The notes beneath the pieces were generated by a model. It saw nothing but the letters and a program-made list of their open reading frames with translations, made no database searches and had not been told where the DNA came from. The position numbers were made by a program, and so were the translations under genes. From an uncultured Thermoplasmata archaeon (GTDB lineage Archaea > Thermoplasmatota > Thermoplasmata > Lutacidiplasmatales > UBA184), in the NCBI GenBank assembly GCA_963838955.1, contig CAWISZ010000002.1:121991-185990 (forward strand): 64,000 bases of DNA, in the 5' to 3' direction. Shown here in pieces: positions 38,275 through 49,245 of this stretch (positions are counted from its first letter, which is position 1; every line of letters starts with the position of its first letter).

Positions 38275-40269
38275 ATGGGGGCTTCCGACACTCTCCGTGC
38301 GCTGGTCGATACGCTCTTGCCGGCGAGCCCGGCGGACGAGCAAGGGCCCGGATATCCCGCTGCGACTTCGGTCGGGCTGGATCGGGATATCGCCGAGATC
38401 GTGACCGATCTCTCTAAGGGAGAACAGGCCGATTTCGCGAGACTCCTGTCGGCGCTCGATTCTCGCTTCGCGAACCTCGTGCTCACCGGCCGCCCCGTGC
38501 AGCTCCATCGCCTGGACGCTGCCGCTCGAGAGCGCTACCTCCTCGGTTGGGCGACCAGTCGACTCGCGGTGAAACGCAAGGGGTTCCACGCGATGAAACG
38601 GCTCGCCGCCGGTCAGTACTTCTCCGGGCCGCTCGCGGGTACGCCGAACCCGCTCTGGAACCGGATTCACTACGGCCCGCCGAGCGTCCCGTCGGGCCTT
38701 CCCGATCCGCTCGACGGTCTCTCCCCGGTGCGCCCGGACCGCGATGTCGAGGAAGAGGTCGACGCCTGCGTCATCGGAAGCGGGGCGGGGGGCGGTGTGA
38801 TCGCCGAGCGGCTCGTTCGGGCGGGGTACTCGACCGTCGTGCTCGAAGCGGGTGCCTGGTTCACCCATCGATCGTACCCCCGAGTGGAGCGGGATGCACA
38901 GCGCCAGCTCTTCGCGGGCGGAGGACTGCTCACGACCCGGAACGGGGCGATCGGCATTCTCGCCGGGGCGACGGTTGGTGGGGGGACCGCGATCAACTGG
39001 ATGACGTGCCTATCGCCTCGCCCCGAGGCCCGCGCGGAGTGGGCACGGGACGGAGGGATGGAAGGGATCGATGGGGCCGATTTCGATCGCCACCTCCAAG
39101 CGGTCGCCGAGCGGCTCCATGTCTCGACGGCGGAAAGCCAGATCAACGCCAACAACGACTCCCTCCGCCGGGGTTGCATCGCGCTCGGCTTCCGTCAAGG
39201 CATCGATTGGGATGTGATTCCGCGCAACGCGGTCGGTTGCCAAGAGCGCTGCGGGTTCTGTAGTTTCGGCTGTCCCTACGCCGCCCGGCAATCGGGGCCG
39301 GTGACCTTCCTTCTGGACGCGCTCCGAGGGGGCGCGCGATTGTATTCGTCGACTCGGGCGGACTTCGTCGAGGTGGAGCAGGGGCGGGTGACCGGGGTCC
39401 GCGCGACCTTCCGGGAGGGATCGCTCACTCGCAACGTTCACGTCCGCGCACGGACGACGGTCGTGGCAGCCGGTGCGCTGCAGACCCCCGCTCTACTCCT
39501 ACGCTCGGGCATCCGCCACGCCGGCGTGGGGGCAGGTCTCCGGCTCGATCCGACCACAGCCCTGGCCGGGGAGTTCCCAGCGCCGGTTCGGACCTGGGTC
39601 GGGCCCCCTCAAACGATCGGCGTCTACCGATTCCAGACGTGCGATGCGGGCGCGCACGGACCGTGGATGGAGGTCGCCCCGGCGCATCCCGGCCTTTCCG
39701 CGATCGCCCTCCCGTGGGCTGGGGCGCGCGACTTCCATCGCCTCCTGGGGCGGAGCGAGTACGTCGCCTCCCCCATCGTGCTCGTCCGCGACGTCGGTGA
39801 GGGTCGTGTCACCATCGACACCGAGGGTCGACCTCGGTTCGATTACGTTCTCACCCCGCGGGATCGGCAGAATCTTCTGAGAGGCATGGTCGAGACCGCT
39901 CGACTCCTGCATGCGGGGGGCGCCACCCGACTGCTCTCGCTTCAGACCTCCTATGCGGAGGTGGGCGATGGGAGGCGACCGCTCTCGGAAGGGGAGCTGG
40001 ATCGGTTCATCGCCCAGGTGGAGCACGTCGGTGTTCGGGACAATGCGATCGCGCTCTTCTCGGCGCACCCGATCGGAAGCGCGCGTGCCGGGCGCGACCC
40101 CCGCACGTCCGCAACGCGACCATCCGGGGAAGTCCACGGGGTCGAAGGCCTGTGGATCGGAGATGGGAGCCTCCTGCCGTCGGCCCCGGGAGCCAACCCG
40201 ATGATGTCGATCCTCGCGGTCGCGCAGCGCACCGCCGACCACCTATTGGCGAAGCTCCGTGCGATCTGA
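38275..40269 (+). CDS. GMC family FAD-dependent oxidoreductase with about 140-aa N-terminal extension
   Basis: Rossmann motif CVIGSGAGGGVIAERL; 664 aa. Confidence 0.9.
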   Translation: MGASDTLRALVDTLLPASPADEQGPGYPAATSVGLDRDIAEIVTDLSKGEQADFARLLSALDSRFANLVLTGRPVQLHRLDAAARERYLLGWATSRLAVKRKGFHAMKRLAAGQYFSGPLAGTPNPLWNRIHYGPPSVPSGLPDPLDGLSPVRPDRDVEEEVDACVIGSGAGGGVIAERLVRAGYSTVVLEAGAWFTHRSYPRVERDAQRQLFAGGGLLTTRNGAIGILAGATVGGGTAINWMTCLSPRPEARAEWARDGGMEGIDGADFDRHLQAVAERLHVSTAESQINANNDSLRRGCIALGFRQGIDWDVIPRNAVGCQERCGFCSFGCPYAARQSGPVTFLLDALRGGARLYSSTRADFVEVEQGRVTGVRATFREGSLTRNVHVRARTTVVAAGALQTPALLLRSGIRHAGVGAGLRLDPTTALAGEFPAPVRTWVGPPQTIGVYRFQTCDAGAHGPWMEVAPAHPGLSAIALPWAGARDFHRLLGRSEYVASPIVLVRDVGEGRVTIDTEGRPRFDYVLTPRDRQNLLRGMVETARLLHAGGATRLLSLQTSYAEVGDGRRPLSEGELDRFIAQVEHVGVRDNAIALFSAHPIGSARAGRDPRTSATRPSGEVHGVEGLWIGDGSLLPSAPGANPMMSILAVAQRTADHLLAKLRAI

Positions 40270-40623
40270 ACCACCCGAGGTGGATCCTCCGGGCGGCGGG
40301 AGCTTTTCGAAGCGCAGGAGGCCGCCTTCGGGGTTGAACGTCACGCGCGCTCGAAACGTCTCGGCGCCCGCCTGGGCGACGCACGTTCGGCCTCGTCGAT
40401 CGCCGGCGATCTCGAGGGCCTCGATGAGGGACCAGCCCGTTTCCTGCTTGATCCGTTCCACCAACTGGTGGAACTGGGTGGCGCAGATCGCACAGCAGAA
40501 GAACATTCGCTCTCCGTCGACCTCTTCCCAGAGGTTCCCCCACGTCGAGTCACAGATGGCGCAGCCGGAATAGTTACGCTTCAAACTGGCCTGCCCTCTC
40601 GAGCCGGGCGATGAGGTAGTCAT
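40243..40623 (-). CDS. Ta0938-like zinc-binding protein (CxxC...CCxxC)
   Basis: GCAICDS...FFCCAICA; 126 aa; overlaps the 3-prime end of the upstream gene by about 50 nt. Confidence 0.5.
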   Translation of the reverse strand: MTTSSPGSRGQASLKRNYSGCAICDSTWGNLWEEVDGERMFFCCAICATQFHQLVERIKQETGWSLIEALEIAGDRRGRTCVAQAGAETFRARVTFNPEGGLLRFEKLPPPGGSTSGGSDRTELRQ

Positions 40624-41488
40624 CGAACAGGTCGATCGATCGTAGGAACGTGGACTGCACGGCCTCGCGGAGCCCGGCTCCGTCCTCGAACTCGGTCACC
40701 AGGTCCAACGCCTCGTCCGAATGCTCTACGTCGGCTTCGTACCCCTCCCGGAGGAAGTCCCTCGCGGCGTTTGTGATCTCCGTCCCCTCGAGGATGGACG
40801 GGTCGAAGTATCGCATCACGGCCCCGTCGTTCACTAGATTGCGGTTCGCAATGAGTTCCAGGCTGTGCATCGCGGCGACCACCGATAGCCAGTGCTCGCG
40901 GGAGGCGATCTCGTTCCACGCTTCGATCGCATGACGCGTCGCCGGTAGAGGAGGAGTTACGAGCACCTGCGCCCGGTCGACACCGAGGCTCTCCCCCATC
41001 CGGAGCAGCAGCTCGTAGTGCGATACGCGCTCCAAGCCGAACCCACCGAACTCCGTGTTGAGGTTGTCGAGCTCATAGAGGACGACCTTCGACTGATCGG
41101 TGCGTGCCATGATGTAGGAGCAGGAGCGAACCCATTGACGAAGGAAATGTTGATGCTCGATCACATACCCGAGCAGAGTGGCCCGCGACGGGTGTTGGAG
41201 CGCGACGACGAAGGAGTGGGGGTTCTTTCCGTAGAACTTCGCAATGAACCTTGACTTGATCCATCCCTTGATCCCGCCCGGGCCCACCTCGTAGAGCTCC
41301 TGCAGACCCGGAACCAGCTCGGCCGCTTCGGACTTCCGCCGAGTCAGGTTCTGGTTCAGCCATCGAACGTGGTTCGTGTTGCTTTCCTCCGCCTGGTCGA
41401 CCAGGTGGCGGGCGAGGGCCGGAAGGTCATCGTCGCCGAGGCCGAGGAGGCATGCCGGACACTTGGTCACGGATCCCTTCCCCTTCAA
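40574..41488 (-). CDS. heme-oxygenase-like di-iron enzyme family (PqqC/CADD/TenA fold) with N-terminal CPAC-containing extension
   Basis: ExxH-type motifs YVIEHQHF, SHYELLLRMGE, AMHSLELIA; 304 aa. Confidence 0.65.
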   Translation of the reverse strand: MKGKGSVTKCPACLLGLGDDDLPALARHLVDQAEESNTNHVRWLNQNLTRRKSEAAELVPGLQELYEVGPGGIKGWIKSRFIAKFYGKNPHSFVVALQHPSRATLLGYVIEHQHFLRQWVRSCSYIMARTDQSKVVLYELDNLNTEFGGFGLERVSHYELLLRMGESLGVDRAQVLVTPPLPATRHAIEAWNEIASREHWLSVVAAMHSLELIANRNLVNDGAVMRYFDPSILEGTEITNAARDFLREGYEADVEHSDEALDLVTEFEDGAGLREAVQSTFLRSIDLFDDYLIARLERAGQFEA

Positions 41489-41709
41489 AGCGGGAACGAG
41501 TTCGGCAGACGACTCCGGAGTGCCTGATATTCCGGGTCGCCGTGATGCATGTTCCGCAGTCGGTTCAGGGTCGCCTTGACTTCGTCGGTCTCCCGGTGTC
41601 GGGAGTTGGCGACCATCCGAACGGTCCCCTCAAAATCCTCCCCGCACGCCTCGTAGCAGTTCCCCATTCCGGTGAGTAGCTCGCGGTCCCGGGGATTCAC
41701 GATCTCCAA
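41485..41709 (-). CDS. small hypothetical protein (74 aa)
   Basis: Start of the downstream heme-oxygenase-like gene overlaps its stop (ATGA); contains CYEACGEDFEG. Confidence 0.45.
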   Translation of the reverse strand: MEIVNPRDRELLTGMGNCYEACGEDFEGTVRMVANSRHRETDEVKATLNRLRNMHHGDPEYQALRSRLPNSFPL

Positions 41710-41823: not shown

Positions 41824-42910
41824 ATGCTCGGAGCCGCTGACGCGAACTCGAGGAGTAGCCGCGCCTCCCTCGCTATCGAGGCGCTGCGCGTTGGGGTCGG
41901 TGTCGTCTGGGCGCTGAACTTCATCTTCATCGTCGCGCCGGCGAACGATTTCTTCGGCAATTTCGGAGCGGTCGTGCTCTCGCTCGGTCCGACCTCGCTC
42001 GGCGGCTCGGGGCTGGAGACGTTCGTAGCGGCGAACGCTGCGATCTTTTCCTGGATGGTCGCGCTCGTCACGGGGTACCTCGCGGTTGCATTCATCCTCG
42101 GTCTGACGACACGCTGGGCGTGCATCATCGGAGGGATCTTCTCCGCCGTGCTTCTCGGTGCTCAGATCGGGACCATCTACGTGTTCCCGGGCGGGACCGA
42201 CGTCGGGGAGCACCCCCTGTACTTGGTGATCTACGTCGCCCTGGTGCTCGGAGGCGCGGGCGCGGCGTACTCCTTGGACCACCGGATCGCCGAGGCATGG
42301 GCACGACGCCGCGCCTACCGGGCGACGTTGGGTGAGGCGGCGCCTCGGGGTGTGTGGGCGGCCGGCTCTACCTCGCGGATCGCCCTTACCTACTTCATCG
42401 CGGGAACCGTCATTTCCTTCGGAATGGGCATGGGGCTCATGATCGCCATCCCGGCGAGCCCCACTCCGGGCCCAACGCCGATCCAGTACTCGGTACGAGA
42501 ATCTGACGATCTCGATCAATGCGACCAACGGCTGGCCAATATACTCGCCCGCCAATCTCACGGTGAGTACGGGACATGTCATCTTCACGATTACCGATTT
42601 CGACTCTCCGGTGGCTTGGTCGCCGTGTCCGTGCGTCGTGGCGGGCACAGACGCCGGCGTCGAATTAATCAATGGAACTCCGTATCATGTCGTTCCGTCG
42701 ACCAACGTCGCCCATACGTTCAACATCCCGGCCCTGGGCCTCGACATCTACACCCCGGGGTTCAGCGTCGTTCAGTTCACCGTCGATCTCATCAACCCGG
42801 GATCCTTCGATTGGTTCTGTACCGCACCCTGCGGAGCCGGAGCCAACCCCTATTCTACCCCGCCGATGGGGACCCCCGGTTTCATGACGGGGACGATGAT
42901 CATCACCTAA
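41824..42910 (+). pseudogene. membrane-anchored cupredoxin-like protein, apparent +1 frameshift near 42470
   Basis: About 6-TM N-domain in the frame of 41824, then cupredoxin-like domain in the frame of 42563 with VAHTFNIP, FCTAPCG and Met-rich tail, resembling the CoxII CuA region. Three N-x-S/T sequons in the linker. Confidence 0.55.
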
Positions 42911-48232: not shown

Positions 48233-49245
48233 TCAGCGTCCGACGTCGGATCGCGTCGGCGGGCATGATATCATTCGAGCGCCGCCCCCGGGGAGGCGGG
48301 CGAGGTACTGCCGCATCGCGAGCGGTCGCAGAGGCCGGTCGGCGAGCGCGAGGTCGAGCACCTCGTCGAACGAATGCAACCGCACATCGATCAGCGCACG
48401 GATATCGTTCTCCCGACACGTCGCTTCAGTGTTCATGCCATCGACCAGCAGTCTCGCCATGCGCGCCGGCACGGTGGTGATGAACCCGACCCAGTGGGAG
48501 GAGAGGCGGGGGGTCAGCAGCGGCGTCGAGATGATCCAGGATCTGCTTCCGAGACGATTTCCGATGCGGTCGAGCATCTCGTAGTACCGCAGGATCTCCG
48601 GACCCCTACGTCGAACCCGCGCCCTGAGGTTCGCGGCTCGCGTAGGCAACCGACGAGGTAGGCGACGAGGTCGTCGAGCGCGATCGGTTGGCAGCGCGTC
48701 CGGATCCACTGAGGGCAGATCATCGCGGGGAGACGCTCGACCAGCTGCACCACCATCTGGAAAGATGCGCCGCCGGCGCCAAGGACGATCGCCGCGCGCA
48801 ACGTCGTCAGCGAGGGTGCACTTTCCGCAAGGATCCCCTCCACCTCCTGCCGACTCTCGAGATGCGCGGAGGACTCGGTCGATCCCCGTTGGAGGCCGCC
48901 CACGTAGATGATCCGCTCCACGCCCGCGTCGGCGGCGGCCCGGACAGTGTTGTTCGCAATCTCTCGATCGAGATGCACGAAATCTATCGATCAATCGCGA
49001 CTCGCCATCGAGTGGACGAGGTAGTACACCGTTCCGACGCCCTCGAACGCTTGCGCCAACCCGGTCGGATCGAGCAGGTCCCCCGTTACGCACGCAAGTC
49101 CGGGGGGAGTGGGACGAGGAGCGGGATGCGGACGAACGAGCGCCCGAACGGACTCCCCCTGGGCCAGCAGGGCCTCCGTGAGGCGGCGCCCGACGAAGCC
49201 GGTCGCGCCGAGAACCAAGACCACCTTCGCTCGTGGTTCGGGCAC
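48233..49245 (-). pseudogene. NmrA-like NAD(P)H-binding protein (DUF2867-type C-terminus) with in-frame TGA plus a frameshift
   Basis: Rossmann motif GATGFVGRRL; YYLVHSMASRD-TGA-SIDFVHLDREIANN in one frame; C-terminal EILRYYEMLDRIGN...HWVGF in another frame. Confidence 0.65.

Follow-up and report, generated by a model that had tools for sequence, protein, structure and literature searches.

Two stretches of coding sequence, 41824–42492 in frame 1 and 42494–42910 in frame 2, together make up one gene for a membrane protein of 361 aa in a 64,000 nt stretch of DNA from an uncultured Thermoplasmata archaeon (hereafter the window; the gene and its parts lie on the + strand). The protein couples a DoxX-like membrane module to an extracellular cupredoxin domain of the CuA lineage, and the nucleotide that splits its reading frame is private to this assembly. 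On the sequence and the structural models, we lean modestly towards reading the protein as a copper-thiolate redox centre that would be wired to the quinone pool.

The membrane-protein frame opens at ATG 41824, according to the ORF list and translation, and the 5' part of the gene (41824–42492, residues 1–223) encodes the N-terminus, the DoxX-like module, a cytoplasmic helix, a fifth transmembrane (TM) helix and a Pro/Thr linker. The 3' part (42494–42910, residues 224–361 and the stop codon) encodes the extracellular domain, a β-domain that ends at TAA 42908–42910 and is in frame 2, +1 relative to frame 1. The initial annotation had noted two frames and a +1 shift, and that much holds, but it placed the shift near CCGGGCCCAACGCC (42467–42480). 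The site is instead a single extra G (TCGG) inside ACTCGGTACG at 42492/42493, where the window has GG and both the sibling assemblies described below and relatives with 80 % identity have a single G. Frame 2 has only one start codon, GTG 42563, and the 115 aa ORF that runs from it (42563–42910) is a by-product of the frameshift. It has been called as a protein (P0291) on the public contig of 294,305 bp, and this fragment is all that the public record holds for the window's copy. Independent translation of the 115 aa ORF was considered and rejected, as its product would have no signal or anchor and would be missing the first two strands of the domain. A scan for promoters and terminators yielded nothing informative for an archaeon.

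The same population is represented by three further assemblies (L003, L004 and L005), one an NCBI MAG and two independent assemblies of SRA runs, which were located via the neighbouring ADH protein. They share 99.96 % identity with the window over 6.8–13 kb and, inside the gene, differ from it by nothing but the extra G; their copy is otherwise 100 % identical and encodes an intact protein of 361 aa (MFZ0699980.1); residues 1–223 are the same as those encoded by frame 1 of the window. The extra G is also absent from the two 80 %-identical relatives (L001 and L002) in a DNA alignment. At least 155 homologues of 345–408 aa cover 95–100 % of the repaired protein, more than 150 Thermoplasmata homologues are intact, and the only other frame-broken copies among 46 species-representative loci were in two long-read Microflora Danica (MFD) assemblies. 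A second private 1 nt indel, in a run of C 6 kb away in the window, breaks the ORF of an SDR gene. Neither form of the junction, with the extra G or lacking it, had an exact match in the genome and metagenome contig collections that were scanned. Since the siblings are intact, a second private indel is present and the other breaks are confined to long-read assemblies, the frameshift most probably arose in assembly and is otherwise no more than a rare variant, as judged by comparison with the other assemblies. The suggestion that the gene might be decayed was not borne out, because the same locus is intact in three other assemblies and so are the more than 150 homologues.

Were the frameshift real in the sampled organism, the gene would be one that was recently inactivated, with the cupredoxin severed from its TM anchor and never exported. 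The G is there in the window, the resulting ORF was called on the public contig, and GG is too short to count as a long homopolymer. However, not only is the G missing from the three sibling assemblies, but there are no other substitutions in 1086 nt, hence no sign of relaxed selection, and the second ORF-breaking indel and the restriction of the remaining broken copies to long-read assemblies also speak against a real inactivation, which we regard as improbable. A programmed +1 ribosomal frameshift might be suspected from overlapping frames that each code for conserved protein, but a single frame runs through the gene in the identical siblings and in every other homologue, and a conserved shift site is absent. 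This explanation was rejected as vanishingly improbable, being effectively refuted by the single-frame sibling sequences. Where a gene in a long contig looks split, a one-base consensus error may be all that lies behind it.

The membrane part begins with a DoxX/DoxD-like module of four helices (residues 7–143, 41842–42252), with a fold like that of a solved DoxX-family protein. Its outward loop, F121-PGGTDVGEHP-131 (42184–42216), was recognized from conservation and a positive-inside analysis, and P122, G123, T125, D126, G128, H130 and P131 within it are invariant in 121/121 family members. The only conserved Cys of the membrane part, Cys100 (115 of 121 members), is within a helix. An Arg-rich amphipathic helix on the cytoplasmic side (residues 151–168, 42274–42327), seen in the AF2 model and in the K/R counts, lies near the point at which natural split forms are broken (genes in L009, L016 and L047–L050). 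The fifth TM helix (residues 184–208, 42373–42447; AF2) leads the chain outside and is the counterpart of the N-terminal anchor in stand-alone cupredoxins, P0286 and P0277 both starting with it. The full-length AF2 model (pLDDT 85.5) thus has five TM helices and a cytoplasmic amphipathic helix in place of the approximately six TM helices initially proposed, though the accompanying observation that the anchor is not the two-helix type of CoxII is supported, as the helices are DoxX-like. The N-terminus is cytoplasmic and the cupredoxin domain is outside, because the distribution of K/R and that of sequons (5.0 in the C-domain vs 0.23 in the membrane part) both indicate this topology, in agreement with the extracellular location suggested before.

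The extracellular domain starts at Y224 and is approximately 138 aa long; the 115 aa assigned to it previously correspond to the GTG ORF, which is without the first two strands. Structure prediction (pLDDT 89.5, pTM 0.85) gave a Greek-key β-sandwich superimposable on known cupredoxins, and the best Foldseek matches of the model were Cupredoxin_1, ba3 CuA and NosZ CuA domains, so that the cupredoxin-like fold originally put forward, with structure prediction named as its test, is confirmed at the level of the model. The Cys-Met loop is the lowest-confidence part of both the domain and the full-length models (pLDDT 60–81). Three N-glycosylation sequons (N-x-S/T), N226-L-T (42500–42508), N244-L-T (42554–42562) and N283-G-T (42671–42679), are found in 121/121 homologues. 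The first two had been listed earlier together with an NAT, now N232, as sequons of a linker; the NLT pair is indeed invariant, but the positions are inside the cupredoxin domain and only 36/121 homologues have a sequon at N232, while N283 was missing from that list.

The domain carries the motif VAH(297)TF...W-x-C(332)-x-x-P-C(336)-G...M(348)...M(354). His297 (42713–42715) lies on the first CuA histidine, Cys332-x-x-Pro-Cys336 (42818–42832) lies on the Cys-x-Glu-x-Cys of CuA, and Met348...Met354 (42866–42886) follow in a loop without His; these residues are invariant in 121/121 members and superfamily-wide, including distant relatives. In only one of the 121 does any His occur in the segment from the Cys pair to the Met residues. 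Hence, the initial description of a site that keeps the first His, the CxxxC pair and a Met and is missing the second His is accurate for the family as a whole. A further Cys268-Pro-Cys270 (42626–42634) is on a 33-residue insertion directly before the His strand, and its two cysteines are invariant throughout the Thermoplasmata branch but missing from bacterial relatives. Hand and HMMER alignments map the 33 residues before His297 differently onto COX2, and the segment was treated as an insertion because one relative is without it. The domain family comprises approximately 475 clusters in archaea and bacteria and is unnamed, with no Pfam or NCBIfam model matching above threshold.

When the domain profile was compared to the PDB, COX2 chains and CyoA chains engineered to carry CuA were retrieved with E values of 5e-5 to 1e-2, and His and both Cys fall on CuA ligands, as had been anticipated from the pattern of the CuA region of subunit II. 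Weak matches to Pfam COX2 were obtained for 58 of the 121 members (best E value 1.2e-4), and no member reached the Pfam or NCBIfam COX2 threshold (PF00116, 14.7 bits vs a cut-off of 22; TIGR02866, 17.7 vs 147.7). The resemblance to CuA, as measured by these profiles, exceeds chance, and the domain belongs to the cupredoxins of the CuA (COX2/NosZ) lineage but has an incomplete set of CuA ligands. It shares with COX2 (PF00116) and the CuA domain of NosZ the fold, the motif (D/N)V(I/A)H(S/T)F..P.LG...PG, the first His, and a Cys-x3-Cys-Gly loop on the CuA cysteines. However, in the full CuA set, His...Cys-x-Glu-x-Cys-x3-His-x2-Met, Ala, Thr, Ser or Gly here takes the place of the second His and Tyr343 that of the Met, whereas the two Met of the window protein lie 12 and 18 residues past the second Cys. 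The insertion with Cys-Pro-Cys also sets it apart, as does a DoxX-like anchor with neither subunit I nor the NosZ propeller. The type 1 (blue) copper set, His...Cys-xn-His-xm-Met, does not describe it either, the loop His being missing, and resemblance to plastocyanin is limited to the N-terminal strands (E value 4e-4). The Bacillus anthracis Cupredoxin_1 protein (PDB 4hcf/4hcg; PF13473) and nitrosocyanin share 14–19 % identity with the domain, have other ligand sets, and possess neither the insertion nor the long Cys-Met loop. The pneumococcal Cu(I) chaperone CupA (Streptococcus pneumoniae, PDB 4f2e), a match by fold, is likewise a TM-anchored extracytoplasmic cupredoxin with Cys and Met ligands, but these are placed differently, as C...CxMxM, a motif absent from the family alignment, and CupA has no DoxX partner.

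A divergent subunit II of a heme-copper oxidase, in which the DoxX module substitutes for the two-helix anchor, was considered, given that COX2 is the nearest sequence family and that one fragment bears the JGI label 'heme/copper-type cytochrome/quinol oxidase subunit 2'. This is very improbable and was rejected, as neither the surroundings of the inspected copies nor the window contain a subunit I gene, the window has no HPEVY or CuA motif elsewhere, the ligand set is incomplete at the second His and at Tyr343, every score is under the COX2 and CoxB thresholds, and the constant partner is DoxX rather than CoxI.

DoxX proteins occur very widely, in bacteria and as far as humans (TMEM35A), and turn up repeatedly in loci for oxidative, copper and sulfur stress. 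The window protein itself does not match PF07681, PF04173 or PF05090, though weak matches to HTTM (40), DoxX (14) and DoxD (3) occur among the 121 members, and none of the Thermoplasmata members passes the Pfam DoxX threshold. In an Actinomycetota genome (L060), the homologous gene next to the cupredoxin is the only neighbour gene to reach the DoxX threshold (25.5 vs 23.6 bits) and also scores 30 bits against the HMM of the window family's N-domain. Most genomes encode the DoxX-like and cupredoxin modules as a fusion; elsewhere the two are adjacent genes, co-directional or divergent (L009/L010, L016/L017, L047, L049, L050, L056, L057 and L062). That they are fused, adjacent in either orientation, and neighbours also in Actinomycetota argues that DoxX and cupredoxin function together.

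Compared to the DoxX proteins of PF07681 (BufD1, lpg2105 of the GIG operon and TMEM35A/NACHO), the window protein is fused to an extracellular redox-type domain via an extra TM helix and is marked, like its family, by a separate invariant loop, PGGTDVG(E/A)H. VKOR-thioredoxin fusions and DsbB-DsbA belong to a different membrane family, and conserved loop Cys pairs are missing from the membrane part of the window protein. A parallel in architecture is thiosulfate:quinone oxidoreductase (TQO) of Acidianus ambivalens (DoxD and DoxA) with the bacterial DoxDA fusions, where a membrane module of the DoxD/DoxX clan is paired with or fused to a second module (PMC8551704). In the window protein, however, the partner is a cupredoxin and not DoxA, and none of the 121 members matches DoxA (PF07680) at E≤0.1. 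TQO uses caldariellaquinone (PMC8551704), and quinone binding by DoxX proteins is established for TQO only. In the bufferin system BufD1, a DoxX protein, is dispensable, and DoxX genes are located in Cu/Au-induced, copper-stress operons (PMC11626156, PMC5413113).

No recurring operon partner (oxidase, Cu exporter or sulfur enzyme) was found in the neighbourhoods inspected, beyond DoxX-like and cupredoxin paralogues, and no CopA, CopZ, CopY or other copper-resistance gene was present in any of them, approximately 12 in all. Because the neighbourhood is not conserved beyond the DoxX/cupredoxin pair, it indicates no donor or acceptor. ArsR-type HTH genes adjoin the gene in L007 and in L009/L010, and an ArsR-HTH/DUF7521 pair recurs in two loci. 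An Actinomycetota relative, P0273, lies directly upstream of DsrE2-TusA-DsrE-TusA-FlpD-HdrA-like genes, in one locus only. In a sister subfamily, this DoxX module is fused to a different β domain containing GCF-x-C (CxxC), encoded after two cupredoxin genes. The CxxC domain of this subfamily and the sulfur-gene context of P0273 are as compatible with thiol or sulfur chemistry as with copper.

The modestly favoured reading places copper in the cupredoxin domain, at a thiolate-based site derived from CuA, where methionine would substitute for the second histidine of a binuclear site or, alternatively, a mononuclear His-Cys2-Met site would form. Through the DoxX module, electrons would then be exchanged between the membrane quinone pool and an external donor or acceptor, making the protein a small cupredoxin:quinone oxidoreductase built like TQO (DoxD plus DoxA). 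The earlier suggestion of a novel copper or electron-transfer protein therefore remains live and is fairly well founded, as the family is conserved, has no Pfam or NCBIfam model above threshold and was not met in the literature searched: no paper was found on DoxX plus cupredoxin, and this family was absent from what was retrieved on CuA variants without the second His and on cupredoxins together with TusA/DsrE. The more specific proposal, an undescribed CuA-derived centre with Met for the second His (His1-Cys2-Met2, with an accessory Cys-Pro-Cys in archaea) hard-wired to quinone by DoxX, is put forward only tentatively, as rather less likely than not.

The Cys residues could instead form the active site of a thiol or sulfur redox enzyme that transfers no electrons by copper, with CxxxC (plus CPC in archaea) acting either in a disulfide relay to quinone, cf. 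DsbB or VKOR-thioredoxin, or in the oxidation of thiosulfate or sulfane sulfur, cf. the proposal for TQO (DoxDA), and with the DoxX module handing electrons to quinone. The sister subfamily, the genes downstream of P0273 and the ArsR-type genes would suit such an enzyme, ArsR-type repressors being able to sense sulfane sulfur according to one report (PMC12423496). It is nonetheless rather unlikely, in that His297, Met348 and Met354 are equally invariant, lie at or near CuA ligand positions and have no obvious need in a thiol enzyme, the DoxA model is unmatched in all members, and the sulfur-gene context comes from a single locus. Alternatively, the protein might handle copper without carrying electrons, binding, buffering or chaperoning extracellular Cu(I) in the manner of pneumococcal CupA, with DoxX as an anchor or as a reductase/oxidase that maintains the right Cys/Cu state. 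We consider this unlikely: the soft ligand set (2–4 Cys, 2 Met and 1 His) is typical for Cu(I) sites, DoxX genes do occur in the Cu/Au-induced operons cited above, ArsR is a metal-sensor family, and the hosts come from acid soil, peat and mine drainage with soluble Cu (record titles), yet copper-resistance genes are missing from the neighbourhoods, as is the CupA motif from the family, and plain buffering leaves the tight, repeatedly evolved pairing with DoxX unexplained.

The DoxX family is enigmatic outside TQO. In the present case, fusion and two kinds of gene adjacency link DoxX to a single defined partner, and they do so in archaea and bacteria alike. As that partner is a cupredoxin, in which ligands can be mutated and metal can be measured, the function of DoxX becomes a tractable experiment. 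A naturally occurring CuA-lineage site built from one His, two Cys and two Met would fill a new position intermediate between type 1, CuA and Cu(I)-chaperone sites. If the copper-thiolate reading is correct, acid-soil Thermoplasmata would possess a minimal cupredoxin:quinone oxidoreductase, present as two genes in some Actinomycetota, and the DoxX family would have its first defined redox partner outside TQO.

The gene at 41824–42910 (+) was initially annotated as lying in two frames, and this is correct: an ATG at 41824 opens the hydrophobic part in frame 1, and the beta-rich domain is in frame 2, ending at a TAA at 42908–42910. The only start codon past the last frame-2 stop is a GTG at 42563, and the 115 aa ORF that it opens lacks the first strands of the beta domain. 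This ORF is the version that public protein records contain, as P0291, predicted on a 294,305 bp NCBI/ENA contig from which the window presumably derives. Alignment of the repaired protein with its homologues placed the frame junction at ...I-Q-Y-S / Y-E-N-L-T..., where the DNA of the window reads ACTCGGTACG and that of two 80 % identical relatives (L001 and L002) reads ACTC-GTACG. The lesion is a single extra G at 42492/42493, 12–26 nt further downstream than CCGGGCCCAACGCC, where the shift had been located originally.

Three sibling assemblies from the same population as the window were reached through the neighbouring alcohol dehydrogenase protein, namely the NCBI MAG GCA_049280295.1 (L003, contig JBAPPW010000042.1) and the Logan assemblies of SRR28062071 (L004) and SRR28062068 (L005). 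All share 99.96 % identity with the window over 6.8–13 kb, the missing G is the sole difference inside the 1086 nt gene, and each encodes an intact protein of 361 aa (MFZ0699980.1, 'hypothetical protein WAN74_07335 [Thermoplasmata archaeon]'). Hence, the frameshift is no sign of decay, which had been raised as an alternative, and programmed frameshifting is ruled out because the otherwise identical sibling sequences run in one frame. A second private 1 nt indel of the window, at 48602, leaves it one C short in a C-run and disrupts an NmrA-like SDR gene in its C-terminal half, where the L003 copy stays open, making two private ORF-breaking indels in 13 kb. This NmrA/epimerase-like SDR gene (48233–49245, −) also contains an in-frame TGA at 48991–48993 (…HSMASRD*SIDF…) common to the window and L003, which could reflect a pseudogene or read-through.

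When frame status was scored with local HMMs in 46 loci of species-representative genomes, the fused gene was a single ORF in approximately 30. The only other frame-broken copies, L046 (4790–6052) and L048 (4830–6057), are both in Microflora Danica long-read MAGs, one of which is a 2.18 Mb 'chromosome', and all of the short-read copies (NODE_/k141) were intact. The two broken copies suggest residual indel errors in the Microflora Danica data set. The frameshift that drew attention to the gene is most probably an artefact, namely a consensus error of long-read assembly; otherwise, it is a rare variant. Natural splits of the protein fall in the cytoplasmic segment ahead of the fifth helix, with a membrane anchor on each half. 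The frameshift in the window lies after the fifth TM helix, so that the cupredoxin could not reach the outside, and a functional split was therefore rejected.

An AlphaFold2 model of the repaired protein, built with 121 homologues (mean pLDDT 85.5), has predicted helices at 7–37, 72–92, 96–119 and 129–143, an amphipathic helix at 151–168, a fifth TM helix at 184–208 and a beta domain at 222–360. Lys and Arg are present only at the N-terminus, in the 93–97 turn and in the 144–183 segment, with none in the 38–62 and 119–130 loops or in the C-terminal 153 residues, and the topology is accordingly N-in, five-TM, C-out. The C-terminal domain has a mean of 5.0 N-x-S/T sequons per protein, compared to 0.23 in the membrane part, and those at N226, N244 and N283 are found in 121 of 121 members. 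The NLT, NAT and NLT sequons that had been assigned to the linker are real, but lie inside the domain; NAT is not conserved, and the third conserved sequon, NGT (N283), had been overlooked. The extracellular part (209–361, window 42450–42910) is 153 residues long and has eight Asp/Glu but neither Lys nor Arg, which fits an acid-exposed surface; the host habitats are acid soils, peat and mine drainage.

The best Foldseek matches of a domain-only model (pLDDT 89.5, pTM 0.85) were Cupredoxin_1, ba3 CuA and NosZ CuA domains, with TM-scores of 0.50–0.56 when normalised by the query and as high as 0.78 when normalised by the target, and the cupredoxin fold, on which the initial proposal had been made to depend, was thus recovered. 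Pfam COX2 and TIGR CoxB were matched below threshold only, by 58 of the 121 members, and the domain profile matched CuA-engineered CyoA (E 5e-5) and COX2 chains (E 1.7e-4 to 1e-2) in the PDB. In this profile alignment, His297 falls on the first CuA His and Cys332 and Cys336 on the CuA cysteines, confirming the incomplete CuA site that had been proposed. The position of the absent second His is occupied by Ala, Thr, Ser or Gly, that of the CuA Met by the nearly invariant Tyr343, and only one of the 121 members has a His anywhere between Cys336 and Met354. The C-terminal domain comes down from CuA-type cupredoxins and probably works like them, though it differs from COX2 in falling below the threshold and in lacking the full ligand set, the anchor and the subunit I partner.

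Residues D258, D260, C268, C270, E280, H297, W330, C332, P335, C336, G337, M348, G352, M354 and G356 are invariant in the 121 fused homologues. The Cys268-Pro-Cys270 (CPC) motif sits on a 33-residue segment running from the strand 'VIFTITDFD' to the His strand, and because a relative without it reads TIVNKTPMPHTFTVP, the segment is recognisable as inserted sequence at the sandwich's ligand end. When the domain profile was run against 1.84 billion representative proteins, 475 clusters were recovered at E<=1e-3, including 190 at E<=1e-10. Most family members are 190–230 aa long and combine a TM or lipoprotein signal with a linker and the cupredoxin domain, with tandem duplications of the domain in a few. 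Only the archaeal branch has the CPC pair, and the residues invariant across distant relatives (D260, H297, T298, W330, C332, C336, M348, G352, M354 and G356) define a core site of His + Cys-x3-Cys + Met-x5-Met, with C-x4-M-x5-M in the shortest loops. This is compatible with a Met in place of the second CuA His. When ten relatives were compared with models of specific named families, not one reached a cut-off, and all of their NCBIfam matches were far under it. Generic domain models were the most that they matched: P0127 exceeds the Pfam gathering thresholds of both COX2 (35.5 bits, 22 required) and Cupredoxin_1 (29.5, 27 required), and a second relative, P0135, barely reaches the latter (27 vs 27). 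Literature searches found no description of this cupredoxin family.

The membrane part is DoxX/DoxD-like and the constant partner of the cupredoxin; it has the DoxX fold and falls short of the DoxX sequence threshold. In L009 and L010, an anchored cupredoxin encoded on its own (P0277, 68 % identical, CPC present) is followed after 42 nt by a 176 aa gene that shares 56 % identity (E 5e-58) with the N-domain of the window, FPGGTDVGPHP included. L016 and L017, both syntenic with the window, encode the DoxX-like module in a gene of its own (192 aa) on the opposite strand, divergent from a 211 aa anchor-plus-cupredoxin gene. A genome scan found more divergent pairs (L047 and L049), a co-directional pair (L050) and operons of two cupredoxin genes then a DoxX-like gene (L056, L057 and L062), and adjacent extra paralogues of either module are present in L018, L029, L032, L042 and L043. 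L060, from an Actinomycetota MAG, has a family cupredoxin of lipoprotein type ahead of a gene passing the Pfam DoxX threshold. The modules are thus found fused, in both types of adjacency and in more than one domain of life, a pattern that classically indicates joint action of the two.

In a sister subfamily (L052 4890–6005, L058 4884–5993, L056 5391–6545, L057 and L062), the same DoxX-like module and fifth helix are joined to another type of extracellular beta domain, approximately 130 aa long, with a conserved GCF-x-C (CxxC) motif and no Pfam match; in the last three loci this gene comes after a tandem pair of family cupredoxin genes.

No conserved neighbourhood beyond the DoxX/cupredoxin pairing was found in the neighbourhoods inspected. 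Genes for an ArsR-type HTH protein and a small DUF7521 membrane protein adjoin the gene in two unrelated Thermoplasmata loci (L007 5959–6698; L009/L010 5670–6439), in differing orientations. In an Actinomycetota MAG locus (L013 5480–12999), two family cupredoxins are immediately followed by DsrE2-TusA-DsrE-TusA-FlpD-HdrA-like genes, which form a sulfur-trafficking/sHdr-like cluster, and a two-component system is encoded on their other side. Neither subunit I of a heme-copper oxidase nor a Cu-ATPase nor a further copy of the gene is encoded in the 64 kb window, which also lacks any tRNA gene or Rfam family at the gathering threshold (1–64000). Upstream of the gene and divergent from it is a cluster (40243–41709, −) encoding a Ta0938-domain protein (PF11494, Cys-rich metal-binding type), a 304 aa protein with a C2H2 zinc finger and a TENA/PQQC/haem-oxygenase-like iron redox domain, and a 74 aa product; it is kept in the siblings and replaced by a stand-alone DoxX-like paralogue in L001. 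A 664 aa GMC oxidoreductase with a fused N-terminal Gluconate_2-dh3-like domain (38275–40269, +) is syntenic in L001, L003 and L016.

Cupredoxins that lose copper (e.g. CyoA) lose their ligands too. That one His, two Cys and two Met are strictly kept at the ligand end of this domain is therefore an argument that a metal is bound there. The metal at this conserved His/Cys2/Met2 set is most likely copper and, judging by the residues retained, the domain probably binds it. Thiosulfate:quinone oxidoreductase (TQO), the one biochemically defined DoxD-clan enzyme, reduces caldariellaquinone (PMC8551704), and DoxX genes go along with copper-stress systems (PMC11626156, PMC5413113). The overall architecture of the protein is like that of TQO, though DoxA is lacking. 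Taking these together with ligand retention, we propose that the cupredoxin domain may carry an extracellular copper-thiolate centre, which would trade electrons with the quinone pool through the DoxX module; as a complete mechanism this is tentative, its chances falling somewhat short of even. As the main alternatives, the protein might perform Cys-based thiol or sulfur redox chemistry, which appears unlikely, or serve in copper handling, which appears slightly less likely again; the readings do not wholly exclude each other.

Though the kinds of component are known, the ligand set of this unnamed, CuA-derived cupredoxin family is new, as is its union with DoxX. The gene family is of moderate interest, as it gives DoxX a defined partner that can be tested and may hold a new copper site.
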